Part shown: piece after piece, positions 4,201 through 31,516 of the stretch
How the letters are laid out: each line of letters begins with the position of its first letter
How positions within the stretch are numbered: position 1 is the stretch's first letter
Source: Bacteroidota bacterium
Lineage (GTDB): Bacteria > Bacteroidota > Bacteroidia > 2-12-FULL-35-15
DNA: 64,000 nucleotides
Assembly (NCBI GenBank): GCA_040389865.1
Contig: JAZJZM010000025.1
Span: 4,421 to 68,420 of the forward strand
Reading direction: 5' to 3'
Made by a program: the position numbers and the translations under genes
The notes under the pieces: model-generated
Told to the model about the DNA's origin: nothing
What the model saw: only the letters and a program-made list of their open reading frames with translations
The model's database searches: none

Positions 4201-4721
4201 CCCTGACAAAGCTCAAGTGAACCACTTGCAGTGATAGTTGGAGTGGCTGGTGCTGATAAAGTATAAATTCCCATTTCACGGATAGCGATCCATGAAGGAG
4301 AGCTAATTGAGTTTATTCTTACTCCCCTTACATTGGTTAAAGGTGCACTGCTATAACATCTTTCTATTAATTGTCCGGTAACATAAAACCCTGTGGCTAC
4401 ATCAACTACTGTCCATGCAACCATATCAGGTGAAGTGAGTATTTCGTGGTTAACATTACCATTAGGTGCCATATCAAACATTATATTGATATTGTTTATG
4501 GTATAGGTTGATCCCAAGTCAATCTCAATATATTGTTGTGCAAAACCGCCTGAATTCCATCCGTCACCGCAACTCCCATTAATAGCATTAGCGGGAACAT
4601 TAGATAGATAGACACCACTTGCCGTAACAGGTTTCCCTATTGCCACATTATCACATTGTGCCGTTATGGTGGCATAACAGCAAACAAAAATAAAGTAAAA
4701 GAAAAGGACGATCTTTTTCAT
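1248..4721 (-). CDS. T9SS type B (gliding-motility C-terminal domain) surface protein with N-terminal F5/8 type C-like domain, Ig-like repeats and PKD domains
   Basis: Signal peptide; NVAIGKPVTAS...YIEIDLG...IRE discoidin pattern; repeated WNFGDG; C-terminal YIPNAFSPNND...IFDRWG...WDG...GIVTLLR. Confidence 0.9.
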   Translation of the reverse strand: MKKIVLFFYFIFVCCYATITAQCDNVAIGKPVTASGVYLSNVPANAINGSCGDGWNSGGFAQQYIEIDLGSTYTINNINIMFDMAPNGNVNHEILTSPDMVAWTVVDVATGFYVTGQLIERCYSSAPLTNVRGVRINSISSPSWIAIREMGIYTLSAPATPTITASGSLELCQGESVTLTSSIANSYLWSTGETTQSIVVNSAAVYSVATNQAPACTQGTNTCTTCGVGTASKTVSVNPLPTVSVSPPAPSTCIGSALNLIASGADTYSWSPSTGLSASTGDAVSANPAATSTYTVTGTDILGCINTAVVTLTVNPKPTVDVRGPMNPLCDSTKLNWASWGTVTGTSGAGTISSDLSVLVTKPSGGLSTTGGMYNGGVFPPQYNVPANNTAIRNDLAGLFTFCFNRPVVNPQIAMSSIGNGGNSVQINTSVPYQVIWSGIGMSYPTNTSFIGAEGFTIIQFPGLHTCISFDYLQSETYCNLAFGTLDTNCQSLVSPPQCGGGADTLTASGAVTYSWSPTTGLNTSAGAVVIASPLVTTTYYVTGFDANNCSDTDSITVTVVPLPVVTVTGDTLICLGDSTTLTATGGGTYLWSPGNSTDSIITVSPSSTTIYTVVVTNSNGCIDSSEINVVVNPLPQALFAMDSVCLNTAMSYNESSTGNIINWNWNYGDGTVSTVQNGPHTYAQCGIYLVKLAVTTSMGCKDSISKMATVNCLPVADFSSTDVCLSQTINFIDLSVVPDDTINSSMPDDSVTGWAWNFGDGSALSTIQNASRTYISAGPHNVSLIVTSHNGCKDTAIKGVNVHPRPMAKFSTTNVCDGTIVPFTDQSTVLAPDLIQSWEWNFGDGSPVFNNQTTSHPYSSIGTYSAKLVVVSNFGCADSITKGVTVSPNPVVSFYAPDTSGCAPLCISFIDQSSITQPSTIMLYEWNVGDGSAVSYSQTFDHCFPNLSVSSAEYYSIILTVTSDSGCFATMTKNSYISVFPNPVADFYTQPTKTSFLTPLVEITNASAGADFWNWNFGDQTISSVSNPGAHTYADTGTYLVTLITSTQFGCSDTANKTVVIEPDFVFYIPNAFSPNNDIHNKTFSGKGLYIKEYEMTIFDRWGNFIYKTTDINLPWDGKLKNSTELAEGDVYVYSIKIIDIKKDEHFYKGIVTLLR

Positions 4722-4933: not shown

Positions 4934-7447
4934 TTATCTAAGTATGGTAACAATTCCTCTAAAAAAGTGTACTTCATTTTTAATGTCAGTGATCTTGAAT
5001 GAATAAATATAAATATCCACTTCGGCAATGTCACTACCCTTATTTGCTTTGCCATCCCAAGGTTCGTTAACATCGGTAGTTTTAAAAGTAAGATTCCCCC
5101 AACGATCAAATATCATCATTTCATATTCTTTGATAAAAAGCCCTTTTCCCGAAAATGTATCATTTTTAAGATCACCATTGGGTGAAAATGCCTCAGGAAT
5201 ATAAAACACAAATTCGGGTTCAATAATTACGGTTTTATAAGCGGTATCAATGCAGGCATATTGAGTGGCAGTGATAAGCCTTACTAAATAGGTGCCTGTA
5301 TCTCCATAGGTATGAGGGAGCGGATTTTCAATTAAAGCCGTTTGAAGATCTCCAAAATCCCAGCTCCAAAAATCAGCTCCGGTTGATGTATTTACAAAGG
5401 AGATCACAGGGTCTATTATACTTGTTTTTGGAGGTTGCACCACAAAATTCGCCACAGGATTGGGATATGCTGTTATATAATTATTTTTGGTTAAGGCGGT
5501 AACGCATCCCTTATCCGAAGTAGCTGTTAAGGTAACTGAAAAATAAAGAGCTGAACTAACAGATGTGTTCGCATAGCAATGGTCAAAGCTTTCCGAAACA
5601 ATTACAGCGCTTCCATCGCCAACATTCCATGCCCATTGCACAACTGTACCGGATGAAACAGTAGACACATCCTGAAAGGAAACACACAAAGGAACACAGC
5701 CGGTAGTATCACTTGCAGTAAAATTAACCACCGGGTTAGGATGAACAATCACCGTTTTAATAATGGAATCAACACAACCAAAACTGGAAACTGTTACTAA
5801 TTTAACACTATAGGAACCCGGTGCAGAATAAAGGTGGGAGGCCGTTTGATTTATAACAGCAGGGCTACCATCACCAAAAGCCCATCCCCATAACTGTATC
5901 ATATCGGGTGAAGTAATGGTTGATACATCTGAAAAAGTAACAGTGCTTCCATCACAAACATTTGCGGTATTGAAATTTGCATCCGGCAGAGGATGAACCA
6001 CCACGTTTTTTGTAATAGTATCCTTACAGCCATTATTGTTAGTTGCAATTAAAGTAACCGAATAAGTCCCTGCATTTGTGTAAGTATGATTAAGGTTTTG
6101 ACCAGTACCAGAAGGACTGCTATCGCCAAAATTCCAAGCCCAGCCGGTAACAGAATCGGCAGGCACCGACAGATCAGCAAAACTCATGGTTTGATTTAAA
6201 CATACATCAGTAAAACTAAAATCGGCCACAGGCAAACAAAATACCCGCGCAGTTTTTGAGATCGAATCCTTACATCCGGTATTGGCTGTTACTACTAATT
6301 TAACGGTAAAAACCCCGCAGGTTGAATAGGCATGAGTTAAAGTTGGAAGTGTTGATGAAGAGCCATCTCCAAAGGTCCATTTCCAAGATGCAATATTTCC
6401 AGGGCTTACGGTGGAGTTATCAGTAAATAAGGTGCCATTTTGCAGGCAAACATTTGTTTTACTGAAAGCCGCAGTAGGATTAGTAAACAACGTTACTGCA
6501 GTTGCAGCAGATGTTGCGGTACATGAATTTGCATCCGTTACTACCACGGTAAAACTTCCTGTTGCAGTTACTGTTATTGATTGTGTGGTAGCGCCATTGC
6601 TCCAGCTATAAGAACTCGCAGCCCCTACTGCAAGATCAACACTTCCTCCAGAGCAAAAGCTGGTTGGACCGCTGGGGGTGATCACTGATGAAGGGCTATT
6701 AACGGTAATGGTTACCGAGCTTTGCGAAAGGCAACCAAACCTATCGGTGGCCGTTACATCGTATTGTGTTGTTACTGTTGGCGTTACACTTGGGGTGGCA
6801 GATGTTGATGTAAACCCCGCAGGTAATGAGATCCAGCTATAGGTATAAGGCGCTGACCCTAAAAAAGTGGTGGTAGGGAGAGTTACACTACCGCCCGCAC
6901 AAATACTTGTAGCGCTTGGTGTAATAGTTGTGACAGGGCATAAATTAACTTCTATTACAGATTTAGAACCTCCTGAACTGCAATTAAGGTCATTCCACTG
7001 TCCGTCAGGATATATTTGAACACAATCTTCATTACCGGAATTATTAGGCTCCCCACTATGCCAGTTCGTATATATAACCGCACTTTGATCGTACCACACA
7101 TGGCCACCCTCGTTGGCTACGTCATTAAACCCTATCCAGATGATACCACCAAAACCATTGGTATTAAGCTCACTTACGATACATGCATTTTCAGAGGCTG
7201 ATTGCAAAGAAATAAGATTCGCCCCAAACCCCTGCGCCCAGGTCTGAGCATCATTACCTGTTTGTGAAAGAGGATTATAAAAATACATACTGCATGACGA
7301 AAGGCAGGAAGTCAATTCCGTACAGCCGGCATCGGCAAACGTAGACCGGATAAGATTAAAATCACAACCTGCCTGGCCTTTAACAGAAACTATCTTAAAA
7401 AAGAAGGCACAAAAGACAAAAATGAATATGAAATAGTTTTTTTTCAT
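4934..7447 (-). CDS. T9SS type B surface protein with N-terminal C-type lectin domain and PKD domains
   Basis: Signal peptide from MKKNY (alternative start 7459); WIGFND...NWHSGEPNNSGNEDCV...WNDLNC; WxFGDG repeats; YIPEAFSPNGD...IFDRWG C-terminus. Confidence 0.9.
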   Translation of the reverse strand: MKKNYFIFIFVFCAFFFKIVSVKGQAGCDFNLIRSTFADAGCTELTSCLSSCSMYFYNPLSQTGNDAQTWAQGFGANLISLQSASENACIVSELNTNGFGGIIWIGFNDVANEGGHVWYDQSAVIYTNWHSGEPNNSGNEDCVQIYPDGQWNDLNCSSGGSKSVIEVNLCPVTTITPSATSICAGGSVTLPTTTFLGSAPYTYSWISLPAGFTSTSATPSVTPTVTTQYDVTATDRFGCLSQSSVTITVNSPSSVITPSGPTSFCSGGSVDLAVGAASSYSWSNGATTQSITVTATGSFTVVVTDANSCTATSAATAVTLFTNPTAAFSKTNVCLQNGTLFTDNSTVSPGNIASWKWTFGDGSSSTLPTLTHAYSTCGVFTVKLVVTANTGCKDSISKTARVFCLPVADFSFTDVCLNQTMSFADLSVPADSVTGWAWNFGDSSPSGTGQNLNHTYTNAGTYSVTLIATNNNGCKDTITKNVVVHPLPDANFNTANVCDGSTVTFSDVSTITSPDMIQLWGWAFGDGSPAVINQTASHLYSAPGSYSVKLVTVSSFGCVDSIIKTVIVHPNPVVNFTASDTTGCVPLCVSFQDVSTVSSGTVVQWAWNVGDGSAVIVSESFDHCYANTSVSSALYFSVTLTATSDKGCVTALTKNNYITAYPNPVANFVVQPPKTSIIDPVISFVNTSTGADFWSWDFGDLQTALIENPLPHTYGDTGTYLVRLITATQYACIDTAYKTVIIEPEFVFYIPEAFSPNGDLKNDTFSGKGLFIKEYEMMIFDRWGNLTFKTTDVNEPWDGKANKGSDIAEVDIYIYSFKITDIKNEVHFFRGIVTILR

Positions 7448-8269: not shown

Positions 8270-11143
8270 CTATCGATTACAGATCCCTTTAAAAGCGCAG
8301 TATTCGCAATTATTAATGTCGGTGGTTTGTTTAAATTCAATTTCGGGATTGAATATTTCAGAAAGTATATTTTTTAATTGTTCTTCGAATTTATTTAAAA
8401 TGGGCAGATTCAATAGATCGTTATTATTTATTTTAACGGTTTTTAATCCCGCACTTAACTCCCGAAAGGTAATAATTCCTGAAACCATATTATCCAGTAT
8501 AGCCGGATTCATCTTTTGATACATCCATGCATACATCAATAATTGAAAGCTTTTTGCAAGTGTGCTATCCGTTTGTATGTTGCTCCATTCCTCCAGCTTT
8601 AATTCTTTATTATCAGCAATACCCGTTTTGTAATCAATGATACGCGTGAGACTACCAACATTATCAATACGATCGGCATTACCGTGCAATTTTATTGTTT
8701 GATCGTTAATAGTTAATGTGGTTTCAAGTTTCTGTTCCAGATTTTTTATGATAAGAGGGGTGCTATCTTTCTCATATTTACTAATGGCGTTCATTTCAGA
8801 ATCCAAAAAATTATTGAGGAATTTTAATGCCACCTTGATCGTCAATAAATTTTTTCCATAACTTATTTCAGTTTTGCTGTACTCCTTTTCAAAAACACTG
8901 ATGGTAAGTGTTTCCACCTGCTTTTTTAGTTCTTTAATATCGGCTGCGTTTATTTTTTTTCCAATAAAAGGCTGATAGAGTGTTTCCAGCACTTCGTGAA
9001 TGGTATTACCCAAGGTATCAGCACCAATAGTTTCTTCCACTTCCTCTGCTTCTCTTAATCCGGCAATTGCCTGAAAATAAAACTGCAAAGAACAATTGCG
9101 GTAGGTATTTAAAAGAGAGGGAGAAAAACCTTTCGCAGCTTTTGTATTTAATTTTTCAATGATAGCAGCTGTTTTTGATATGCTGATCACATTTCCTGTA
9201 TTATCAACATTTACCGGAATGTTAACCAGTTTTTCTTCGATCACTACATTCTTATTTACTTTTGGTAGCTCGTGGATCAACTGCGTTAAAAAACGACTTT
9301 TTTCTCCACTGCCAAGCGCATCACTCTCAGTATTATAAAGCAAATAAATATTTTTTGCCCGTTGGATCAAACGATAAAAATGGTAGGCAAAAATCGCATC
9401 TTTATCATTGTAGGTGGGCAATCCGAAATAGCGTTTTAATTCAAAAGGTATAAAAGAATTCATTGTTTTACCGGATGGTAAAATATCTTCGTTACAGGAT
9501 AAAAGAATAATATTTTCGAAATCAAGTGTACGCGTCTCAAGCATTCCCATCACTTGTAAACCCATTAAAGGCTCCCCATAAAAGGGCAAGGTTGTGCTTC
9601 TTACAATTTGTTTGAGAATGTTCTGCAATGTTTTCAGATCAACGATACTACCCGGATAATCAATCATCAGCGCTTGTATGCGTTTTATTATTTTGGTGAA
9701 AGCAAACAAATATTCCAATTCAAGACTTGCATTATTTTTTGATGAATTCCCTTGTTGTGCAACTATGGCATTTTTTAAGGTGTCAATTAAATAATGTACA
9801 CAAGCAATGGCATCAGCAGGAGTTTGCCAATGTTTAAATAAGGGCCTTAAAATATCAAGCGTATCTTCCTGTTTTTCAGTGATTATTTTTTCGAGCGTAG
9901 AAAATGCAGCGAATACAATATTTCTATCCTGAATTGCCTTTATAACAGGCTTAACAGAGTTGTGATGGTCTTTATTAAAAATTAAAATAGTACTGAACGG
10001 ATGGCTCAATAGTTTTAACAGATCTTTATGATAAAAACTATATTTCTCTTTTCCCTGGCTTAGTTTTATAGCATTAGTATGCAGATTAAAAACAAGGTCG
10101 AAATATCCTGCAATAGGCGTATTCTTTAAGGGATAACCCATTGTTACATTTATATCCTCAATATTTTCAGGGAGTGAATGTAAAACGGGGAACAACAAAT
10201 TTTCATCCGCAAGCACTAATGCCGTATTTTGCAGGCTGGCGTATTGCTTTTGAAATGCGGCTATTAAATTTCCTGCAACCTTGGCCTGTGCTACATTTTT
10301 TGCAGCACCAATAATGGTGATGTGTTTATCTTCAGTGGAAAGCTGGTTTTCCTCAAATACAATATTTTTGCCGGGAATCTTTTTAAAGCTTCCGTGATTA
10401 TCATATTTACGAATGAACTTGCCGGCTTCCTGCCTGGTATCATTTATATAATAACTATCGGTATCCCATATAATTTCAGCTTTACCAAGGTCCAACAGTT
10501 TTTCAATGATCTGTTCTTCCGCCTTATTTAGGGCGTTAAAACCGGCAAAAATTATTTTTTTCCAGGGGTGTTTATTTATTCTTTCCTCAATAGTGGAAGC
10601 AACTATTTTATATGCCAATCCCTGGTAGGCCTGATGTTTATCAAGTAACCTTTTATTAAAATCAAAATAGTAAGTTCCTAACGACTGCCAGAAACTCAGG
10701 TATTGTTGTTGAAAATCAGTAAGCACCTCCTCGCTATTCAAACTCCAGGCTTCAAGCTCTTTTATATCTTTTAAATTTCCAAACAATTGTGTTCCATCCA
10801 CCAAATAGCGGTCGATCTCATTCAGATCACTTAATAAGATCTGGCCCCATTTACTGAATTCATCAAAGCTCTCTACTTCATTTTTATTGACATTTTTTAC
10901 TGTTTCATATAATTCAAATAACAAGGTAGTAGAATCTGCAATTTCTAATTCGGCAAGTAGTGCAACAAAATCCTCGGTTGCATAAATTTCGGGACTCCAG
11001 AATGTTTTTTTGAGATTGTTTGCAAAGTGGGTTTTCAAAAACAATCCTGCTCTTCGGTTGGGAAGGACAATACATAATTCACTTATGTCGTCTCCATATT
11101 TTTCACACAGATGTTTTACCGTTTTTTCGAGGAAGGATTGCAT
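8270..11143 (-). CDS. AddB/RexB-like PD-(D/E)XK nuclease with inactivated helicase domain
   Basis: VLPNRRA start, LQVMGMLETR, FSPSLL..YRNC, ADRID...IIDYKTG, FQLLMY, terminal CEYCAFKGIC (Fe-S cysteines). Confidence 0.88.
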   Translation of the reverse strand: MQSFLEKTVKHLCEKYGDDISELCIVLPNRRAGLFLKTHFANNLKKTFWSPEIYATEDFVALLAELEIADSTTLLFELYETVKNVNKNEVESFDEFSKWGQILLSDLNEIDRYLVDGTQLFGNLKDIKELEAWSLNSEEVLTDFQQQYLSFWQSLGTYYFDFNKRLLDKHQAYQGLAYKIVASTIEERINKHPWKKIIFAGFNALNKAEEQIIEKLLDLGKAEIIWDTDSYYINDTRQEAGKFIRKYDNHGSFKKIPGKNIVFEENQLSTEDKHITIIGAAKNVAQAKVAGNLIAAFQKQYASLQNTALVLADENLLFPVLHSLPENIEDINVTMGYPLKNTPIAGYFDLVFNLHTNAIKLSQGKEKYSFYHKDLLKLLSHPFSTILIFNKDHHNSVKPVIKAIQDRNIVFAAFSTLEKIITEKQEDTLDILRPLFKHWQTPADAIACVHYLIDTLKNAIVAQQGNSSKNNASLELEYLFAFTKIIKRIQALMIDYPGSIVDLKTLQNILKQIVRSTTLPFYGEPLMGLQVMGMLETRTLDFENIILLSCNEDILPSGKTMNSFIPFELKRYFGLPTYNDKDAIFAYHFYRLIQRAKNIYLLYNTESDALGSGEKSRFLTQLIHELPKVNKNVVIEEKLVNIPVNVDNTGNVISISKTAAIIEKLNTKAAKGFSPSLLNTYRNCSLQFYFQAIAGLREAEEVEETIGADTLGNTIHEVLETLYQPFIGKKINAADIKELKKQVETLTISVFEKEYSKTEISYGKNLLTIKVALKFLNNFLDSEMNAISKYEKDSTPLIIKNLEQKLETTLTINDQTIKLHGNADRIDNVGSLTRIIDYKTGIADNKELKLEEWSNIQTDSTLAKSFQLLMYAWMYQKMNPAILDNMVSGIITFRELSAGLKTVKINNNDLLNLPILNKFEEQLKNILSEIFNPEIEFKQTTDINNCEYCAFKGICNR

Positions 11144-11263
11144 GGAACGAAATTAAGGATTATAAATTGAAAAGTGTTTTATACTTTTTAGGATTATACA
11201 ATTAATATTAGCTTATATTTGAAAGAGAAACATAGTTAATATTTATAAATTAAACTGACAAAT

Positions 11264-22899: not shown

Positions 22900-24237
22900 A
22901 TGGAGAAACAATTTTTACCTTTTAGCAAACAATTTGCTTACGCATTTGGCATGATGGGATGGAGCATAATGATCAATCTCATTAGCGTTCTATTGGTTTA
23001 TTTGTATTTACCGCCTACAGGCAGTGGTTTACCGAACTTAATTACACAGGTTGCCATCTTTGGCATTTTCAATGCTATTGCCATCATCACTGCAAGCGGT
23101 CGCCTGGTAGATGCCTTATATGACCCCCTGATAGCACAATTCAGTGATAGCAATCAAAACCCTAAAGGACGAAGGATTCCTTTAATGAAGATGGCAATAA
23201 TTCCATCCCTGATCTTTTGCTGCCTGGTTTTTTATCCTTTGAAACATGAAGAAAACACTGCTAATATTGTCTGGCTGGCATCAATGCTTATTTGTTTTTA
23301 CGTTTCATCCACTACCTATATTATTCCATACAATGCTTTATTGCCGGAATTAGCACCCACTTCCCAGGATAAGATCCGTTTGGCAACATGGCAATCTGTT
23401 GGTTATGTGGTTGGAATTGGAATAGCCTCCAATGCATTTAACCTTACCGATCTGTTGCAACATTCCTTTAATATTACTTCGCGCATTGCAGCTTTGCAGT
23501 ACACTGTTTTTTTAATGGCGCTGTTAGCCTCAGCATTTATGGCTGTTACTGTATTCGCGATAGATGAAAAAAAATATTGCATCAGCAAACCAAGTATAAT
23601 TCCCTTGAAAGAAGCGCTGAAACAAACACTCTCCAATAAGCAGTTCTTATTATTCATTGTTGCCGATTTTTCTTATTTCATTGCGGTAACCATCATTACA
23701 TCCGGCTTATTGTATTTTGTCACAGTATTACTGGGGTTGCACGAAACCATTGGAAATAAATTAATGATAACAATGGTACTTGTTTCATTTTTGTTTTATC
23801 CAATTGTAATTTATTTTTCCAAAAAAGTGGGTAAAAAAATCATCATCATTTTTTCACTCTCCTTATTATCGATCGTTTTCCTGGGAATCTATTTTTTAGG
23901 AAAAAGCAGTATTGATGCGGAACTTCAAATCTATTTATTGATCACACTTGCTGCCATTCCTTTGGCATCCCTCAATATTTTACCAAATGCAATATTGGCT
24001 GAAATCATTGAAAAAGATACTTTAGACACAGGTGCTAATAAGGAAGGAATTTATTTTGCTGTGCGCTACTTTTTTGTGAAGATCGCTCAAACCTTTGGCA
24101 TTGCTTTATTTGCTATGCTTTTACTTTATGGAAAAGATCCGGGGAATGATTTTGGTATCCGGCTCAGTGGAATTTTAGGTTTTACACTTTGCTTTTTGGC
24201 GGCTATTATTTTTAGTAGGTTTAAAGAGAAAAGGTGA
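22900..24237 (+). CDS. MFS transporter, GPH/MelB-like family
   Basis: About 12 TM segments; DALYDPLIAQFSD...GRRIP; PYNALLPEL; EGIYFA. Confidence 0.88.
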   Translation: MEKQFLPFSKQFAYAFGMMGWSIMINLISVLLVYLYLPPTGSGLPNLITQVAIFGIFNAIAIITASGRLVDALYDPLIAQFSDSNQNPKGRRIPLMKMAIIPSLIFCCLVFYPLKHEENTANIVWLASMLICFYVSSTTYIIPYNALLPELAPTSQDKIRLATWQSVGYVVGIGIASNAFNLTDLLQHSFNITSRIAALQYTVFLMALLASAFMAVTVFAIDEKKYCISKPSIIPLKEALKQTLSNKQFLLFIVADFSYFIAVTIITSGLLYFVTVLLGLHETIGNKLMITMVLVSFLFYPIVIYFSKKVGKKIIIIFSLSLLSIVFLGIYFLGKSSIDAELQIYLLITLAAIPLASLNILPNAILAEIIEKDTLDTGANKEGIYFAVRYFFVKIAQTFGIALFAMLLLYGKDPGNDFGIRLSGILGFTLCFLAAIIFSRFKEKR

Positions 24238-24334
24238 ATTTAGAGATACGCGGTGCGCTTTATATACAAAGATCTTGGTACAAAACCCTTGAAAACATCA
24301 AGTCTAAATACCTTTGGCCAAACACACGAAGTTG

Positions 24335-24511: not shown

Positions 24512-24955
24512 CTACTTTTTCCGCTTAATTAAAAATGCTTTATACTCTGTTTCTTTACGAAATTGATGCCATTGGTCATCCTTTAAGCCAAATACCTCAA
24601 AGTCTTTTTTTATTTCCAACAAATTATTCGTTATTCCGATTCTGTAAAGACGTGTCCGAGCGTTATTACTGCCTCTTGCGTAAATCCATACGTCCGGGTG
24701 TTTGTCGGTGAAAGCGTAAACTGTAGAAGCAACGGTTGCTAAAACCTCTTGGCTGTCACCGTTATTAGTTATTATGGTGTCGTCAATTTCTCCGGTCTTT
24801 TCATTTTTGTCACCGAAACCCAAATTATAGTAGTCCTTTAAATTGGTTTCGGTGTACTGAATTATTTTTTTAATTCTCCCCTTTGGTCCAACACTTACAA
24901 ATTCAAATAATAATAATTTCCTATCCGATTCGAGTTGATATTTGTCATATTTCAT
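24512..24955 (-). CDS. DUF6934-like protein
   Basis: FEFVSVGPKGRIKK, YNLGFGD, NNGD..VLATV, RTRLYRI pattern recalled for this family. Confidence 0.7.
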   Translation of the reverse strand: MKYDKYQLESDRKLLLFEFVSVGPKGRIKKIIQYTETNLKDYYNLGFGDKNEKTGEIDDTIITNNGDSQEVLATVASTVYAFTDKHPDVWIYARGSNNARTRLYRIGITNNLLEIKKDFEVFGLKDDQWHQFRKETEYKAFLIKRKK

Positions 24956-25054: not shown

Positions 25055-25326
25055 CATCCCTGAATATTTTTACCAAATATGTTACTGGCTGAAATCTTAA
25101 AAAAAACACTTTAGATACAGGTGCTAATAAGGAAGGAATTTATTTTGCTGTGCGCTACTTTTTTGTGAAGATCGCTCAAACCTTTGGCATTGCTTTATTT
25201 GCTATGCTTTTACTTTATGGAAAAGATCCGGGGAATGATTTTGGTATCCGGCTCAGTGGAATTTTAGGTTTTACACTTTGCTTTTTGGCGGCTATTATTT
25301 TTAGCAGGTTTAAAGAGAAAAGGTGA
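25055..25326 (+). pseudogene. Duplicated 3' end of the MFS gene
   Basis: 25108-25326 matches 24019-24237 with 2 mismatches; 25055-25107 is a degenerate match to about 23965-24018. Confidence 0.92.
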
Positions 25327-25342
25327 TTTTGGTGAGCGTTCG

Positions 25343-25530
25343 TTATAACGAGTGCAATAACTGTTGCGGGCTAGGAGCTGTGCTGAATTTACTTGCAAAA
25401 GCTGCCCCATAGCACAAATATAAATTAAAAGAGATGATTGAATGGCAAATACAAAATTTCCACGCAGCGACCGCTGAAAAAAGCATTTGAAAATGCAGAA
25501 ACTCCGCATTGCATTTAGGCCATGTTATCG
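25343..25530 (-). other. attC-like site 1 (terminal, arms pair poorly)
   Basis: Minus strand CGATAAC...GTTATAA; interior similar to sites 2 and 3. Confidence 0.7.
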
Positions 25531-25554
25531 GCTCCTCTTCTATTGTTGTCCAAT

Positions 25555-26163
25555 TTACAAATCTATTGTCCTGAAGGTTAAGTTTATTCTTGGTTTGTTT
25601 ATGAGTTTTGTCGGTGGAAGTCGGTGTAGCCAATTTGTTTGCGTTGTATCTTTCATTACCAATAAACTTCCGTGTTCTAAAATCAATGAAATGGTTTCTT
25701 TTGTTTCCTTGTGCTTGAATGAAAATTTGCGTTCTGCTCCAAAACTTAATGAACCGATTGCCCCATTTTTCTTTAAATCTTTTTCAGCATCACTATGCCA
25801 CGCCATTCCTTCATCGCCATTATGGTATAAGTTAAGCAAACAGGAATTGAATTTTTCGCCTGTTTTTTCTTCGGCAATTGATTTTAATTCTAATAATTCA
25901 GTTGTCCAAGATAAGGCTCGTTTAGTTGTGTTAGAATAGGTGTATTCAAAATCGGTGTCGCCATACCAAGCTACTTTTCGTTTTGTAATTATTAGCTTTC
26001 CATAGATAATAGCCTGGTCATTTTTCCATTCGATTGTATTCATTAAAAAATCGAAATAATGATTTGCTTCTTTGTTACTCAGTAGTTTTCCGTAATAATT
26101 TACAATACCATCTTTTGGTAATACGTTTTTTGAACTGTCTATTTCGTTGTTGAATAAATCCAT
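25555..26163 (-). CDS. AlkB-family 2OG-Fe(II) dioxygenase (ALKBH2/3-like)
   Basis: FNSCLLNLY, GMAWHSD, LEHGSLLVM, WLHRLP, RINLTFR. Confidence 0.93.
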   Translation of the reverse strand: MDLFNNEIDSSKNVLPKDGIVNYYGKLLSNKEANHYFDFLMNTIEWKNDQAIIYGKLIITKRKVAWYGDTDFEYTYSNTTKRALSWTTELLELKSIAEEKTGEKFNSCLLNLYHNGDEGMAWHSDAEKDLKKNGAIGSLSFGAERKFSFKHKETKETISLILEHGSLLVMKDTTQTNWLHRLPPTKLINKPRINLTFRTIDL

Positions 26164-26915
26164 TATTTAGTATTTGATAATCCACCATCAATTACAATTT
26201 CTGCTCCGTGAATGTATGAAGCATCTTCGGAAGCAAGAAAAAGAACCGTCTTGGCAATTTCAGATGGTTCGCCAAAGCGTTTAAAAGGTAGCGTTGGCAT
26301 AATACCTGCTACAGCTCCTTCAATTTGGTCAAGTGTTAGTCCTGTATTGTTAAATATATTTGTTTTAATATATCCCGGGCTAATTCCGTTTACTCGGATT
26401 TTCTTTGCCGTACATTCAGAAGAAAATGTTTTTATGAATGATTGCACTGCTGATTTTGCTGCTGAATAAATTGAAAAATTCTCTATCCCAAATTCTGTTA
26501 CAAAAGATGTGTTTAAAATTATAGAACTTCCTGCATTCATTATTGGTAATATTTGTTGAACAGTAAAGAATGTTCCTTTTACTAACATATTAAATAGTTC
26601 ATCAAAGTGAGTTTCGTCCACCATTTCAATTGGTGCAAATTTGCCATATCCCGCATTTACAAATAAAACATCCAATTTATTTGTGTGTATTTTAACCTGC
26701 TTTTGTAATTCAAAAATATCTGATAATTTTCCCGCATTTGATACAAGTCCAATAGCATTTGAACCTAAACGGCTTACTGCTTTATCTACTGTTTCTTGAC
26801 TACGCCCTGTAATGATTACAGTTGCACCTTCATTAATAAATTCTTGAGCTGTGGCAAAACCCATTCCGTTTGTTCCACCTGTAATTAAGGCTACTTTGTT
26901 TTTAAATTTTTGCAT
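26163..26915 (-). CDS. SDR family oxidoreductase
   Basis: TGGTNGMG, VNAG, YSAAK, IRVNGISPG. Confidence 0.93.
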   Translation of the reverse strand: MQKFKNKVALITGGTNGMGFATAQEFINEGATVIITGRSQETVDKAVSRLGSNAIGLVSNAGKLSDIFELQKQVKIHTNKLDVLFVNAGYGKFAPIEMVDETHFDELFNMLVKGTFFTVQQILPIMNAGSSIILNTSFVTEFGIENFSIYSAAKSAVQSFIKTFSSECTAKKIRVNGISPGYIKTNIFNNTGLTLDQIEGAVAGIMPTLPFKRFGEPSEIAKTVLFLASEDASYIHGAEIVIDGGLSNTK

Positions 26916-26934
26916 TTCTTATTTTATATTTAGA

Positions 26935-26981
26935 TGCAAAGATTCACATTGTTGATTAGCTATAAAACCCGAAACTTGCTA
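26935..26981 (-). promoter_or_regulatory. Putative operator plus -7 element upstream of SDR-alkB
   Basis: Minus strand TAGCAAGTTTCGGGTTTTAT-N20-CTTTGCA; same module at 27849-27895. Confidence 0.65.
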
Positions 26982-27830
26982 AATAAACTCTGAATGTGTT
27001 TTTGTTCCTTCCCAACCAATGATGGCTGTTTTTCTTGTATTTCCCCACATATACCCACCAAATATTCCTGAAGATTGAATCACTCGGTGACAAGGAATTA
27101 AGAAAGCAACAGGATTACTTCCAATTGCCGTTCCTACAGCTCTTGAAGCATTTGGATTTTCAATTTCATTAGCAATTGCTCCGTAAGTTGTCAATTGTCC
27201 TAATGGAATTTTTAAAAGTGTTTGCCAAACTTTTAGTTGAAAATCTGTTCCCTTTAAATGTAATTTTATTTGGTTCAATTTTGTCCAGTCGTGTGTAAAA
27301 ATATAGAGTGCATTTTGCTGAATTAAATCAACCATTTGCCTAAAAACAGCATTTGGAAAATGGTTTTTCATTGTTAAAAATGCAACATCTTCCTTATCAG
27401 AAAATGCCATATAACAAATTCCTTTTTCTGTGGAAGCAACTAAAATGTTTCCAAATGGACTTTCTGCAAAACTGTAATTTATAGCTAAATTTTTTCCTCC
27501 ATTTTTATATTCAGCAGGTGTCATACCTTCTATATTGATAAACAGGTCGTGTAAACGACCTGTGCCTGAAAGTCCTGTTTCGTGTGCAGTTTCAAAAAGT
27601 GTTGCTTGATTTTCTTTCAAAAGTGCCTTGGCGTATTCTACTGTTGTGAATTGTAGAAATTTCTTCGGACTTGTGCCTGCCCATTCGCTAAAAATGCGTT
27701 GAAAATGAAATGGACTTAAATGAACTTTCTTTGCAACTTCATCAAGATTGGGTTGTTCCTTAAAATTTGTTTTTATATACTCTATTGCTTCTGCAATTCG
27801 GTTGTAATTGATATTTTGTTGTTCGGTCAT
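26979..27830 (-). CDS. ada: AraC-HTH / O6-methylguanine-DNA methyltransferase fusion (Ada-like, no Zn-binding N-domain)
   Basis: LSPFHFQRIF..WAGTSPKKF HTH; ASRAVGTAIGSNP, active site IPCHRV. Confidence 0.9.
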   Translation of the reverse strand: MTEQQNINYNRIAEAIEYIKTNFKEQPNLDEVAKKVHLSPFHFQRIFSEWAGTSPKKFLQFTTVEYAKALLKENQATLFETAHETGLSGTGRLHDLFINIEGMTPAEYKNGGKNLAINYSFAESPFGNILVASTEKGICYMAFSDKEDVAFLTMKNHFPNAVFRQMVDLIQQNALYIFTHDWTKLNQIKLHLKGTDFQLKVWQTLLKIPLGQLTTYGAIANEIENPNASRAVGTAIGSNPVAFLIPCHRVIQSSGIFGGYMWGNTRKTAIIGWEGTKTHSEFI

Positions 27831-27848
27831 TATCGTCAAATTTTATAA

Positions 27849-27895
27849 TGCAAAGGTCGAAAGAAGTTTATCATCATAAAATCCGAAACTTGCTA
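27849..27895 (-). promoter_or_regulatory. Putative operator plus -7 element upstream of ada
   Basis: Minus strand TAGCAAGTTTCGGATTTTAT-N20-CTTTGCA. Confidence 0.65.
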
Positions 27896-27942
27896 ATGTT
27901 TAGTCTGTCTGTTTGAAGGATGCAGTGTGGTCATAGAGTTGT

Positions 27943-28122
27943 CGATAACGTTCCGGAGCTTTGCGATGTGTGGGTTTTAAAAGCACAAAACTGAATTAAC
28001 CGGAAAACTTTATTAAAAGGACAAAAGGAAATTGCAAATGCGAAAAGTTCCGCGCTTCAACGCACCTATGATGCATTTGCAACTTGCAGAATCTCCGCAT
28101 TTATTTTGAGCCGCTGTTATAA
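27943..28122 (-). other. attC-like site 2
   Basis: Minus strand TTATAAC...GTTATCG; interior shares AAACTGAATTAACCGGAAAACTTTATTAAAAG with site 3. Confidence 0.8.
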
Positions 28123-28129
28123 GCTGCCC

Positions 28130-28621
28130 CTAGTTATTATATTTTTTAAAAGGGTCAACATACACTATTTCTTTTCGTCCGAAGATAAAAGCGATTAAAG
28201 CAAACAACGGAAATAAAATGACGGATAAGCAACCCAAGTCAGAACTATAATAATGAAATGGTTGTCCAGTCATGTTCAAATTAAAATACACTTTAGATTT
28301 CCAATGTCTGCCAAAAATAAAAATGTCTTTGCTCACCCAACCCATTTCAAAAACTGGGGCTAAGAAATTGTCCACAAGTTTTATATTTTCATCATTAAAA
28401 CTAATGTCTCCGTTATATTCACCAGACCAACCTTTTGTCTTGTCATTATAATAGTGAATGTCGTTTATTTGTTTCCAGTCCTCACTAGGCCAAATGAAGG
28501 AAATACTCGTTCCTGTTGCGATGTGTTTAATGGTTAAAGTATTTGAAATATCTTCTGTGGTGAAAGTGAATTGTTCTTTCGGAATGAATTTATTGTCGAT
28601 ATATTTCTTCCAGTTTTCCAA
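28130..28621 (-). CDS. Cassette-encoded hypothetical protein with C-terminal TM segment
   Basis: ORF (TTG start) fills the space between attC-like sites 3 and 2. Confidence 0.75.
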   Translation of the reverse strand: MENWKKYIDNKFIPKEQFTFTTEDISNTLTIKHIATGTSISFIWPSEDWKQINDIHYYNDKTKGWSGEYNGDISFNDENIKLVDNFLAPVFEMGWVSKDIFIFGRHWKSKVYFNLNMTGQPFHYYSSDLGCLSVILFPLFALIAFIFGRKEIVYVDPFKKYNN

Positions 28622-28637
28622 CGATCAAAGGGGTTGC

Positions 28638-28819
28638 TTATAACGTTTTCAGGCTACACGAAGTGCGGAATTTAAAGGCACTAAACTGAATTAACCGGAA
28701 AACTTTATTAAAAGTACAAAAGGGAATGGCAAATGCAAAATGTTCCGCGCTTCGCGCACCGATAAAAATGCATTTGCAGCTTGCACGATTTCCGCATTTT
28801 GTGTGAGCCTGTGTTAGTG
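28638..28819 (-). other. attC-like site 3
   Basis: Plus-strand arms CAGGCTACACGAAGTGCGGAA / TTCCGCATTTTGTGTGAGCCTG pair with G:T wobbles and one extrahelical G. Confidence 0.88.
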
Positions 28820-28829
28820 CCAGTGCTTA

Positions 28830-29348
28830 TTATTCTGAGCGTTTATTCTTTCGTAGCTTCTCTAGTATTCGCCAACCTTTCGATGTATTAATTATTTTGA
28901 CAGAAATAGTTTCTGTTATTTCGCTGCATTTATATTCGATTTCAAGTTGTCCAATTTCAACAGGGAGATTTCGTAATTTGTCAGTAATTGGTATAATGTT
29001 TCCGATTTGAATATTCTTTTTGCAGTTCTTGATATTTATGTCATTTATAATTTCTGTGTAGCTTCTTTGTATTTGTTCTTTCGTTCTTTCTTTGTCTGTG
29101 TTTAATTTGGTAATGAATTCTTTTTTGAATGGAATTAATATAGAGTCTGGCAGGTCGGATTGGTCAAGAGTATTTTCTGTTTCTTTTTCTGTGACAATCA
29201 GGTCTAGTAATGCCTTTTCTTTTTGATTTTTAATTGCCTCAAAAATTTTCAGTCCAAGTTCTTTCGGTGTTTTGTCTTTTTTGTCTGCTAAGAATGATAG
29301 CATAAAAAAGGATAATACTAATAATGTAATTTGTCTAAATATTTTCAT
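28830..29348 (-). CDS. Cassette-encoded secreted hypothetical protein
   Basis: Signal peptide MKIFRQITLLVLSFFMLSFLA; start revised to 29348 (or 29363) because the listed 29411 start lies inside attC-like site 4. Confidence 0.75.
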   Translation of the reverse strand: MKIFRQITLLVLSFFMLSFLADKKDKTPKELGLKIFEAIKNQKEKALLDLIVTEKETENTLDQSDLPDSILIPFKKEFITKLNTDKERTKEQIQRSYTEIINDINIKNCKKNIQIGNIIPITDKLRNLPVEIGQLEIEYKCSEITETISVKIINTSKGWRILEKLRKNKRSE

Positions 29349-29366
29349 GGTAGATTTTAGCATTGG

Positions 29367-29553
29367 CACTAACGTTTTGCAAGCAGGCGCAGGCGGCATT
29401 TGAAAATACAAACGTGTCTACTTGCACAAAAGTTTATTCGAAGATATGAACTTTATTAAGCGGAGGCAAATAAAACAAATGTCTGCGAAGCAGGCAATAA
29501 TAAATGCCGGAGCCCTTGCACTTCCTGCCGCTTGCGCTTGCTTGCTGTTATAG
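29367..29553 (-). other. attC-like site 4
   Basis: Plus-strand arms GCAAGCAGGCGCAGGCGGCA / TGCCGCTTGCGCTTGCTTGC inside CACTAAC...GTTATAG. Confidence 0.88.
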
Positions 29554-29584
29554 GCAGGGGTATACAGATTTTCGTATCAATTTT

Positions 29585-30406
29585 CTATTTTTTGATTGGA
29601 CCAAAAAAATCTTCAAATGTTTTTTTTTGGCTTTCATTATTGTCATCAAGCATCGCTGATGGTCTAGTTATATTTGGAAACGGAAGCCAGTATGATATTG
29701 CCATTTTTCTATCGTTAATTTCGACAGCCTCTTTTTCGCCCATTGAAAGATAGTATTTTTTAAATTCATCAAAACTTGCCTTGTCAATAAATAAACTAAA
29801 TGTGTTGTTATTATACTTAATTGTCGATGGGGAATTTAAGTCAGGAAAATTTTTAAGCCATGGTCTTTTATTCGGTGCGTAATTATAATCCCATAACATC
29901 ACTTCAATTTTATTTGGAAGCCATTCTTTTGCAGAGCCATTTTTGTATTTTTTTATCTTATCATAAACTTTCAAAAACTCTTTTGGTGTTTTTTTTCTCG
30001 CATCTTTACTGTCTTGTAGGTCGCCATAAACGCTAATAATTCTAGTAGAATCAAAATTTAGTATTAAATCACTTGAAGGTTGGTCGGTCCAACTACTAGC
30101 TTCAATAGAGCTTTTAAGTTTATAAAGGTCGTCTGAAACAGAAAGTGACCTAATTAATTTTTCGAGTTCGTCTCCAGTTAGGGTAACTTCATAAAGTTTT
30201 AAATGTCCGTTTTCTATTTTTTTATAAATAATCCGGCCATTCTCATACATAGCAAAGGTGGGGATGTCTGAACCAATAACCATTAACCATGGATTTGTTT
30301 CTGTTAAAACGATTAACGGCTTACCATAAACAGTATCGTATTCTTGGCCAACGAGGATATTACAAATAAATGTCAGTCCGATAATTAAAGAAAATGGTTG
30401 TCTCAT
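29585..30406 (-). CDS. Cassette-encoded secreted hypothetical protein (first cassette)
   Basis: Signal peptide; flanked by GTTATAGGCA and TGCCTATAAC. Confidence 0.8.
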   Translation of the reverse strand: MRQPFSLIIGLTFICNILVGQEYDTVYGKPLIVLTETNPWLMVIGSDIPTFAMYENGRIIYKKIENGHLKLYEVTLTGDELEKLIRSLSVSDDLYKLKSSIEASSWTDQPSSDLILNFDSTRIISVYGDLQDSKDARKKTPKEFLKVYDKIKKYKNGSAKEWLPNKIEVMLWDYNYAPNKRPWLKNFPDLNSPSTIKYNNNTFSLFIDKASFDEFKKYYLSMGEKEAVEINDRKMAISYWLPFPNITRPSAMLDDNNESQKKTFEDFFGPIKK

Positions 30407-30448
30407 TTTATCTTATAATAGTCTTAACTATTTTCAATTCGCCCTTGC

Positions 30449-30515
30449 CTATAACTTGTTTATACCCGCTACAAAGTAGCGCATAGCAACCTGTTTTTGG
30501 GTAGATATGCGAATG
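30449..30515 (-). other. attI-like site
   Basis: Minus strand ...GGGTATAAACAAG/TTATAG with no attC hairpin partner; upstream inverted repeats CGCATATC...GCTATGCG and CGCTAC-TTT-GTAGCG. Confidence 0.6.
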
Positions 30516-30574
30516 TTTGTATCGTTTTTCTTTTGTCTTTCAATTTCAACAATCGAATGGAGATCACAAAAAAA

Positions 30575-31339
30575 TTATTTTACAGCAACAAAAAGGGATT
30601 CAACCGCTTCCCAGTTCAATACATTCCACCAGGAGGCGATATATTCTGCTCTGCGATTTTGATTTTTTAAATAATAGGCGTGTTCCCAAACATCCAATGC
30701 GAGGATGGGTGTTCCTTTTACTTCAACGCTATCTAAATTCATTAATGGGTTATCCTGATTGGCTGTTGATGTGATCACTAATTTCCCTTTACTCACTACC
30801 AGCCAAGCCCAACCAGAGCCAAAACGTTTCATTGAAGCATCCGTAAATTGTGTTTTAAATTCATCGAAGGAACCAAAAGAAGCATTTATAGCAGCAGCTA
30901 TTTTCCCTTTTGGTTGTCCGCCAGCATTTGGTTTCATTAATATCCAAAACAAAGAATGGTTATAATGGCCACCGGCATTGTTACGAACAGCGGCAGGTAG
31001 TTTTGCTACTTTATCAAAAATATTATCAAAAGATTGAGGACTTCCCAACACATTTCCATCAACTGTTTCCAAGGCTTTGTTTAAATTGGTCACATACGCC
31101 TGGTGATGTTTGCTATGGTGGATCTCCATCGTTAATTTATCAATATGAGGCTCTAAAGCATCATAATTATAAGGCAAAATAGGAAGACTGTATTTCCCAC
31201 CGTCCGGAGTTGCCTTTTCTTTTTCGATATGCTCAGAAGCTGCAAATACATTATTGACAATAGTTGTTGCTGCAAGAGTGCCCAGTGCAAGTGCAGCTGA
31301 TTTTTTAAAAAAATTTCTACGTGAGTTATTGTTTTCCAT
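30575..31339 (-). CDS. sodA: Mn/Fe superoxide dismutase with Tat signal peptide
   Basis: SRRNFFK; [28 protein letters not shown]. Confidence 0.95.
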
Positions 31340-31516
31340 ACTACTACGAATTACGAATTTAAAACGAATTTACTTGGTTACGGATAACGAATCATACGGT
31401 TACGGATAAACGAATCGTTACGAATTTACGAAACTGTATGTATAAAAAAAACAGCAAACACAGTTTCGTAAATTCGTTTTTCTATTCGTTATCCGTAACC
31501 ACGTTTATTCGTAACC
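31340..31516. repeat. Short-unit (TACGAAT/TACGGAT) repeat cluster with inverted symmetry
   Basis: GGTTACGGATAACGAAT ... ATTCGTTATCCGTAACC and ACGAATTTACGAAACTGT ... ACAGTTTCGTAAATTCGT. Confidence 0.75.

Follow-up and report, generated by a model that had tools for sequence, protein, structure and literature searches.

A 64,000-nucleotide (nt) stretch of the genome of a Bacteroidota bacterium (GTDB lineage Bacteria; Bacteroidota; Bacteroidia; 2-12-FULL-35-15; GenBank assembly GCA_040389865.1, contig JAZJZM010000025.1, forward-strand positions 4,421 to 68,420), referred to here as the window, raises the question of what kind of element lies between an MFS transporter gene and sodA, where six open reading frames (ORFs), minus strand throughout, occupy positions 25343-30455 and are partitioned by four long intergenic sites into four units that resemble gene cassettes. 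Integrons are the textbook gene-capture device of bacteria. Surveys relying on the integron integrase IntI and the standard attC model have, according to PMC9024848, recovered almost nothing from Bacteroidota proper, with only In0 in 2016 and one complete integron (Salinibacter) in 2022. The region is very probably an orphan array of cassettes from a site-specific recombination system that resembles an integron and is found widely in Bacteroidota. The genome that carries it (G000; 97% complete, 27 contigs) was compared with its congeners and with a wider sample of the phylum, and sites were sought with a covariance model, R1, built from sites of the genus. The components of the array are given below, with protein lengths in amino acids (aa).

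25355..25530, plus strand: attC-like site A, array-distal (last), ~176 nt, stem decayed; R1 match 78.4 bits
25555..27839, minus strand: cassette 4, three genes, between sites A and B
27943..28122, plus strand: attC-like site B, 180 nt, stem partly decayed; R1 match 119 bits
28130..28621, minus strand: cassette 3, single 163-aa ORF without Pfam family
28638..28819, plus strand: attC-like site C, 182 nt, long imperfect hairpin; R1 match 159.9 bits, but site C is in the model seed
28830..29348, minus strand: cassette 2, single ORF, 172 aa from ATG, without Pfam family
29367..29553, plus strand: attC-like site D, 187 nt, best fold of the four; R1 match 68.3 bits though not in the seed
29585..30406, minus strand: cassette 1, single 273-aa ORF; weak DUF6438 match (PF20033 at 9e-5, under its cut-off)
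30452..30529, plus strand: attI-like element, 78 nt conserved, starting exactly at the TAAC crossover core
30546..30563, minus strand: recombinase gene remnant, last five codons and stop

The plus strand of each of the four sites starts with NNN-TAAC and ends with GTTA-NNN. A first-pass annotation, made from the letters alone, had reported the four sites, the six minus-strand ORFs and these end motifs, all of which are present on the sequence, and had placed the sites just after stop codons, where they indeed start at a distance of 5-15 nt. The lengths that it gave stand for sites B, C and D, but site A, put at 188 bp, is shorter because the homologous TAAC is the second one, at 25358-25361, as judged both from alignment with a copy on contig C13 and from the extent of the R1 match (25355-25530). 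The annotation included neither the attI-like end (30452-30529) nor the remnant of the recombinase gene (30546-30563), nor the recombinase family. A scan with R1 found no further sites of the array type elsewhere in the 64-kb window.

Cassette ends and folding of the sites

The boundaries of the cassettes can be read from the sequence just outside the sites. On the plus strand the 6 nt that follow the GTTA of one site and the 6 nt that precede the TAAC of the next are the two ends of one cassette, and in the window these read TAGGCA and TGCCTA (at 30446-30455), GTGCCA and TGGCAC, TAAGCT and TGCTTA (5/6 complementary) and TCGGCT and TGTCGA (4/6 complementary). The complementary cassette ends described in the first-pass annotation hold in the window, with these last two cases imperfect, and can be generalised well beyond it: in 18 arrays from several orders 47 of the 57 neighbouring site pairs are complementary at five or six of the six positions. 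The mean complementarity, 4.88, is far above chance, the corresponding figures being 2.28 within one site (n=75) and 2.23 for random pairs. The fourth base of the core follows the same rule, a variant GTTG at one site being answered by CAAC at the next in all six cases read. Such complementarity is the footprint expected if circular cassettes are cut out and inserted through exchange within the invariant GTT/AAC. The relation found in integrons, whereby the remainder of R' at the 5' end of a cassette pairs with the R'' of that same cassette, thus holds here, and the sequence places the exchange point to within the invariant GTT.

Folding of the sites was assessed using ViennaRNA with DNA parameters. 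Site C has a minimum free energy (MFE) of -28.4 kcal/mol on the plus strand and -25.4 kcal/mol on the minus strand (z-score -3.5 relative to shuffles) and site D has values of -35.5 and -30.6 kcal/mol (z-score -5.0); in both, the base of the hairpin is formed by TAACG paired with TGTTA, followed by a 4-nt bulge and then by a stem of ~20 bp. It had been proposed that these two sites, the third and fourth, fold better on the non-coding strand through G:T wobbles, and the MFE comparison bears this out, the plus strand having the advantage because the wobbles become C:A mismatches on the other strand. The extra G that had been noted on the gene-side arm of site C is seen in the fold as a single unpaired base, and there is none in site D.

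The hairpin also covaries. In a seed alignment of 11 sequences compensatory changes were found in 14 of 26 pairs and 78% of cells were paired; the covariation score was reached by none of 500 shuffles, and sliding the partner columns by one to three positions reduced pairing to 37-59%. D-type sites were left out of the model seed, their 3' arms having been misaligned by MAFFT, and were found by the model all the same. When 91 sites were aligned to the model the main helix contained 1489 Watson-Crick, 162 G:T, 66 A:C and 163 other cells, one helix pair was G:T in 83 sites and the core closing pair was G:T in 89, and the bottom strand (that opposite the genes) was the lower in MFE in 69, with a mean advantage of 2.2 kcal/mol; since these sites are kin and were aligned by fitting to the model structure, the counts overstate independence and represent a trend rather than independent events. 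The usual length of sites in the family is ~130 nt (64 of the 91), and the form of 176-187 nt is typical of this genus. The asymmetric features seen family-wide are a one-sided 4-nt bulge on the R' arm and the conserved G:T wobbles, extrahelical bases being irregular. The sites therefore possess the features by which an attC site is known, namely an imperfect palindrome, AAC/GTT ends and a bottom-strand hairpin.

The recombinase, complete elements and competing explanations

There are six copies of the attI-like element in G000 (on C25, which is the contig of the window, twice on C2, and on C3, C24 and C14). In every one homology starts exactly at TAAC and extends through the conserved 78 nt, and the sequence to the left of TAAC is different in all six. 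On C2 there is overlap between the element and the 3' end of a tyrosine recombinase gene that is without its 5' part. The window shares ~35 nt more with this copy, as far as 30564, where C2 encodes the recombinase C-terminus, and the minus-strand reading of 30546-30563 gives the last five codons and the stop codon of a C2-type recombinase. This remnant points to a recombinase gene that formerly lay between the array and sodA and was later deleted. In congeners the same attI-like element is found just downstream of intact recombinase genes and before the first cassette. To judge from these sequences, relatives possess an attI-like site, adjoining the recombinase gene at the head of the array, of which the element and five codons remain in the window. 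No exact TAnnTTTG motif was seen by eye in the element. Directly upstream of the truncated recombinase gene a pair of short ORFs (97 and 92 aa; G000:C2:18261-18817; L001 2062-2618) overlap each other in a toxin-antitoxin-like layout.

A C-terminal query of 114 aa found matches at E 1e-20 or better in 36 of 67 congeners, mostly in open frames of 370-410 aa, and the intact family members in congeners are 370-390 aa long. They score below the cut-offs of the established models, with 211-214 bits against 220 for the archaeal XerA model NF040815, 194-196 bits against 265 for the integron integrase model TIGR02249, 189-195 bits against 329.6 for XerD and 180-186 bits against 335 for XerC. The alignment to TIGR02249 is in two stretches, skipping model positions ~177-229, which is the place of the IntI-specific domain. 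Comparison with solved structures yields a single-piece alignment to XerA (4a8e, 5hxy; E ~3e-39) and a two-piece alignment to the Vibrio integron integrase 2a3v (IntI4), and an AlphaFold model (pLDDT, the predicted local distance difference test, 87.7) has XerA as its nearest fold, followed by 2a3v. Residues 1-85 form an extra alpha/beta N-terminal domain that is confidently modelled and for which there was no PDB match at E < 0.001; the best matches, to YciH (0.068), the XPB damage-recognition domain (~0.1-0.2) and the HARP domain (0.35), are hints at most. Across 61 family members there is no variation at the catalytic positions (Arg, Lys, His-x-x-Arg, His and Tyr). The recombinase, then, is without the IntI-specific domain (I2 helix) that marks an integron integrase, and it is equally out of place among the Xer resolvases, which are two-domain proteins of ~300 aa scoring above the family cut-offs. 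More than 8000 database relatives of the recombinase exist, carrying only such names as 'integrase/recombinase XerD' and 'site-specific integrase'. Relatives in open frames of 490-585 aa (G067:C25, G064:C325, G076:C33 and G009:C43) may constitute a subfamily with a larger N-terminal part. Many recombinase contigs stop within 1-2 kb of the gene; the sites break assemblies.

Some relatives carry the recombinase, the element and the cassettes together. In G042 the attI-like element comes after the gene for a 380-aa recombinase and leads into an array of at least 11 sites spanning 11.5 kb, with every sizeable ORF on the recombinase strand, whilst in G005 the order is recombinase, element, one cassette, one site and then a housekeeping gene. 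An uncultured member of the Flavobacteriales (L081) has 14 single-ORF cassettes of 130-225 aa in 10 kb, with a 130-nt site within a few bases of each. The linkage was quantified at 80 recombinase loci, one genome per species, from Flavobacteriales, Cytophagales, Sphingobacteriales, Chitinophagales, Bacteroidales and one Ignavibacteriota metagenome-assembled genome. All 69 R1 matches were on the strand opposite the recombinase gene, 67 of them in 244 kb of downstream sequence compared to two in 576 kb upstream, and of the 32 loci where the downstream sequence reaches 2 kb or more, 20 contain one or more sites. Recombinase and cassettes share a strand in G042, in L081 and across the 80 loci, an orientation other than that of the divergent integrase gene of integrons.

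Scanning the genome and its relatives with a model made from the sites, as the first-pass annotation had suggested, revealed the same sites flanking variable ORFs across the genus and the phylum. R1 found 22 sites in G000, including singletons, and sites at E 1e-5 or better in 63 of the 68 genus genomes, counts per genome being lower bounds as no more than 39 candidates were scored in each. Among 151 Bacteroidota genomes that were sampled evenly and are at least 90% complete, sites were present in 60, representing 37 of 89 genera. When the same sample was searched for the recombinase (profile A5, E 1e-70 or better) both components were found in 33 genomes and neither in 75, though kin are not independent. 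We consider it highly likely that this is a genuine cassette-recombination system and that it is linked to the Xer-like family.

A number of observations weigh against such a reading. The terminal stem of sites A and B is not formed in the MFE structures; both show extra in-register mismatches in comparison with well-paired relatives (a C13 copy for site A, with 89% identity and four additional stem mismatches counted by eye, and site C for site B, with 82-83% identity) and are accordingly read as decayed copies. The relatedness of the 91 aligned sites, already mentioned, reduces what their counts can carry. With the genus-trained model, 12 of the 32 loci with at least 2 kb downstream have no site. 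In the 151-genome sample sites occur without the recombinase in 27 genomes and the recombinase without sites in 16, and in G125, G089 and G138 the sites and a shorter or truncated family member are out of the expected order. Neither profile search nor tblastn found a full-length family member in G000, where there is only the truncated C2 copy, so that activity in this genome is not arguable; separate 300-aa Xer-like genes are present on C21 and C13. No recombination product was seen, the single public run with this DNA, from which the assembly probably derives, consisting of contigs rather than reads. Finally, one 213-aa cassette occurs twice in the L081 array (6002-6771 and 10424-11193), and the 100%-identical segment starts and ends inside the flanking sites and not at GTT, so that homologous exchange fits as well as site-specific exchange.

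The L081 duplicate leads to the explanation that arrays are assembled and rearranged chiefly through homologous recombination among similar sites, or through Xer-type exchange of double-stranded DNA at the short core, with no role for the hairpin. Sites within one array are 82-92% alike, and the recombinase is without the I2 helix that is held, in PMC7790495, to underlie single-strand recombination by IntI. However, homologous exchange would preserve neither the complementarity of cassette ends nor the fourth core base that follows the cassette, the covariation of the stem extends over ~20 bp, far beyond a Xer core site, and the excess of G:T over A:C points to selection on one folded strand. 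It is very unlikely that exchange of this kind accounts for the arrays.

There are features of the sites, notably their palindromic form, their common core sequence and the many copies per genome (the 22 of G000 include singletons), that would be shared by selfish or structural intergenic repeats accumulating after genes, whether of the repetitive extragenic palindrome (REP) and bacterial interspersed mosaic element (BIME) type or of the miniature inverted-repeat transposable element (MITE) type, in which case the 'cassettes' would not be mobile units. What makes this highly improbable is that the 6 nt flanking each site correspond to the distant end of the adjoining gene unit and not to the other end of the site itself, that the sites, unlike such repeats, obey this cassette-end rule and are tied to a recombinase gene, with constant orientation (69/69) and a downstream position (67/69), and that the terminal element held in common, which is not palindromic, starts precisely at the core.

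It has also to be asked whether this is a degraded canonical integron, that is to say a set of clustered attC sites without any integron integrase (CALIN) whose cassettes were or still are moved by a true IntI. Four sites with no recombinase on contig C25 would make such a cluster, the GTT/AAC core and bottom-strand hairpin are those of the textbook attC, and integrons are on record in Bacteroidota in the broad sense (PMC9024848, PMC8618304 and 10.1101/2022.02.06.479319). Yet none of the 68 genus genomes has an IntI above the TIGR02249 cut-off, the best matches being the Xer-like family, which skips model positions ~180-230; the gene remnant beside the array belongs to this Xer-like family, and arrays lie directly downstream of it in several orders. 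A canonical origin is hardly credible. Equally hard to credit is the notion that the sites act as RNA, as 3' untranslated region terminators, stabilisers or regulators of upstream genes, for although their position after stop codons means that they would be co-transcribed and the top strand folds too (mean -20.5 kcal/mol over 91 sites), the conserved wobbles are G:T on the strand opposite the mRNA and C:A mismatches in the transcript, stability favours the bottom strand in 69 of 91 sites, there is no Rfam match at E up to 1 (Rfam itself holding no attC family) and the cassette-end rule is left unexplained. The sites may still serve secondarily as terminators.

State of the locus and its cassettes

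The array varies between close relatives. The closest, G002, is 92-94% identical in the MFS gene, sodA and neighbouring genes, and comparison of cassettes at the MFS-sodA locus, another suggestion of the first-pass annotation, reveals that the array is missing from it: the two genes are separated by 1.1 kb containing a single unrelated minus-strand gene of 284 aa, with neither an attI-like element nor a full site at the locus. A short stretch after the G002 MFS stop codon resembles, by eye, the 5' arm of a D-type site. As the array is absent from the same locus in G002, it represents either an insertion or a variable segment at a hotspot. Since the adjoining recombinase gene has been deleted and two stems have decayed, the array is best seen as a CALIN-type orphan, and, short of a recombinase acting in trans, it has probably lost its mobility. 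The remaining attI-like elements and sites of G000 (six and 22 in total) include a four-site array on C3 and smaller arrays on C2, C13 and C24 (loci L052-L060 on C2, C3, C13, C14 and C24), all without an intact recombinase. A joint of 29557 to 30445 was considered as a possible excised cassette and rejected, as it comes from the paralogous C3 locus. The genes on either side of the array and those of the largest cassette are listed here.

22900-24237, plus strand: flanking MFS transporter gene (Pfam scan)
25097..25335, plus strand: duplicated 3' end of the MFS gene, 97% identity, with native downstream sequence, abutting site A
25555-26163, minus strand: AlkB-like 2OG-Fe(II) oxygenase, cassette 4 (Pfam PF13532, 6e-33)
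26163-26915, minus strand: short-chain dehydrogenase, cassette 4 (Pfam PF13561, 1e-50)
26979-27839, minus strand: AraC/Ada-type methyltransferase, cassette 4 (Pfam PF01035, 7e-30)
30575-31339, minus strand: flanking sodA (Pfam scan)

There are no paralogues of the window cassettes in G000 or among the collected recombinase and site loci. At the DNA level their matches within the genus are almost all to the sites; beyond these, matches of 69-78% were obtained for the gene of the first cassette and for the ada-like and alkB-like genes. The three genes of cassette 4 (ada-like, short-chain dehydrogenase and alkB-like) form a unit resembling an alkylation-repair operon in content, and in G050, which has no R1 match, ada-like and alkB-like homologues are adjacent (G050:C27:38507-40240); this suggests that an operon was captured as a single cassette. 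Four other species (G021:C27, G048:C54, G024:C79 and G003:C9) have sites that share 91-92% identity with site D; in these species sodA is only 73-76% identical to that of the window, and the genes beside site D have no match there. The similarity of site D across species suggests horizontal spread or a strong constraint on the site.

The surroundings of the array have also been rearranged. The last ~240 nt of the MFS gene are doubled, at 24008-24246 and 25097-25335 (97% identity), at a spacing of 1089 nt and on either side of a DUF6934 gene (24512-24955, minus strand), and it is the second copy whose downstream sequence is that of G002. It thus appears that the intact MFS gene received its 3' end from an inserted segment of 1.1 kb. 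A 17-nt stretch in the MFS 3' end (24056-24072 and 25145-25161) shows 94% complementarity with the central part of the attI-like element (30473-30489), which is probably a coincidence, ~0.2 such matches being expected by chance in 8 kb on a rough estimate. Nested inverted repeats lie at 31364-31512, between sodA and a biotin-lipoyl protein gene, one pair with arms of 29 nt at 90% complementarity and another with perfect arms of 18 nt.

Relation to known systems and significance

A complete element of this system has three parts: a Xer-related tyrosine recombinase of 370-390 aa, in which a domain of ~85 aa is added at the N-terminus and the IntI-specific insertion is missing, a conserved attI-like site ~90 nt downstream of it, and an array of mostly single-ORF cassettes, co-directional with the recombinase and each ending in an imperfect palindrome of 130-185 nt. 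The strand opposite the genes, the bottom strand, would fold into a hairpin, its base formed by the duplex xxxTAACG / TGTTAyyy and continued by the 4-nt bulge and a ~20-bp stem with a nearly invariant G:T wobble. Recombination would then be the work of this recombinase as the catalyst on a single-stranded substrate, cutting within the invariant AAC/GTT; strand exchange with another folded site would excise a circular cassette and exchange with the attI-like site would insert one, the junction presumably being resolved by replication. It may be that the new N-terminal domain reads the bulge of the hairpin or its wobble in place of I2.

The likeness to integrons is extensive. Both have tandem, mostly single-ORF cassettes in one orientation, a cassette-ending imperfect palindrome that folds best on the bottom strand, an invariant AAC/GTT core with the sequence just outside it travelling with the cassette, a non-palindromic attI-like site beside the recombinase gene, and arrays that vary among close relatives. 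The sites within one host are alike, as are the repeats of Vibrio super-integrons. The differences are that the recombinase here is without the I2 helix, fails the IntI cut-off and has an N-terminal domain with no significant structural match, that its gene is co-directional with the cassettes, and that what is left unpaired as a spacer is a 4-nt bulge confined to the R' side, with irregular extrahelical bases. The integron-type logic put forward in the first-pass annotation therefore stands, on the evidence of cores, covariation, strand bias and variability, whereas a canonical integron does not, and the long sites that it emphasised are a variant of the genus. The system works like an integron, yet because the additional domain of IntI is absent it should not be filed as one.

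Nor is it a Xer/dif system. Xer sites are short double-stranded cores of ~28 bp. The sites described here are covarying hairpins of 130-185 nt, and the protein, whilst closest to XerA in its catalytic core both by sequence (E 3e-39) and by fold, scores below all Xer cut-offs, carries an added domain and coexists with separate Xer-like genes that the genome has kept. Gene modules bounded by recombinase sites are a further point of resemblance to Xer-dependent pdif modules (PMC7399989). The window array is like a CALIN in having four sites and no recombinase on the contig, with a remnant that indicates loss, and differs in that the lost gene is of a family other than IntI; in Cury et al. 2016 (PMC4889954) a CALIN is defined by the standard attC model and a lost IntI, and tyrosine recombinases near attC sites without the IntI domain are stated not to be IntI. 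The same source mentions '21 integrases near attC sites', among which members of this family could be included. The 'reverse' integrons typical of Spirochaetota (10.1101/2022.02.06.479319) likewise have the recombinase gene and cassettes pointing one way, a minority orientation among integrons, but their integrases, according to the literature, keep the IntI additional domain, which the recombinases described here do not.

No published description of the system was found in the full-text literature, including what is accessible of PMC9024848, PMC8618304, 10.1101/2024.07.02.601686, PMC4889954, 10.1101/2022.02.06.479319 and PMC13616975, a scope outside which subscription journals and supplements fall. 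On balance, if by no great measure, we lean towards the view that it is an undescribed integron-type gene-capture platform of Bacteroidota, present in ~40% of sampled genomes, in which a Xer-like recombinase acts on folded single-stranded hairpins without the I2 helix. As to its origin, it may be a sister lineage showing what integrons were before I2, or an independent invention of the same logic. Integron finders based on IntI would not report complete elements of this system. If the view is correct, a gap in integron-type gene capture would be filled for a major environmental and host-associated phylum, and thousands of unannotated cassettes would be opened to study, given the more than 8000 database relatives of the recombinase on its own. 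The I2 helix has been seen as the chief novelty of integron integrases, and, again if the view is correct, the long-standing question of the need for it in recombining folded single-stranded sites (PMC7790495) would become testable.

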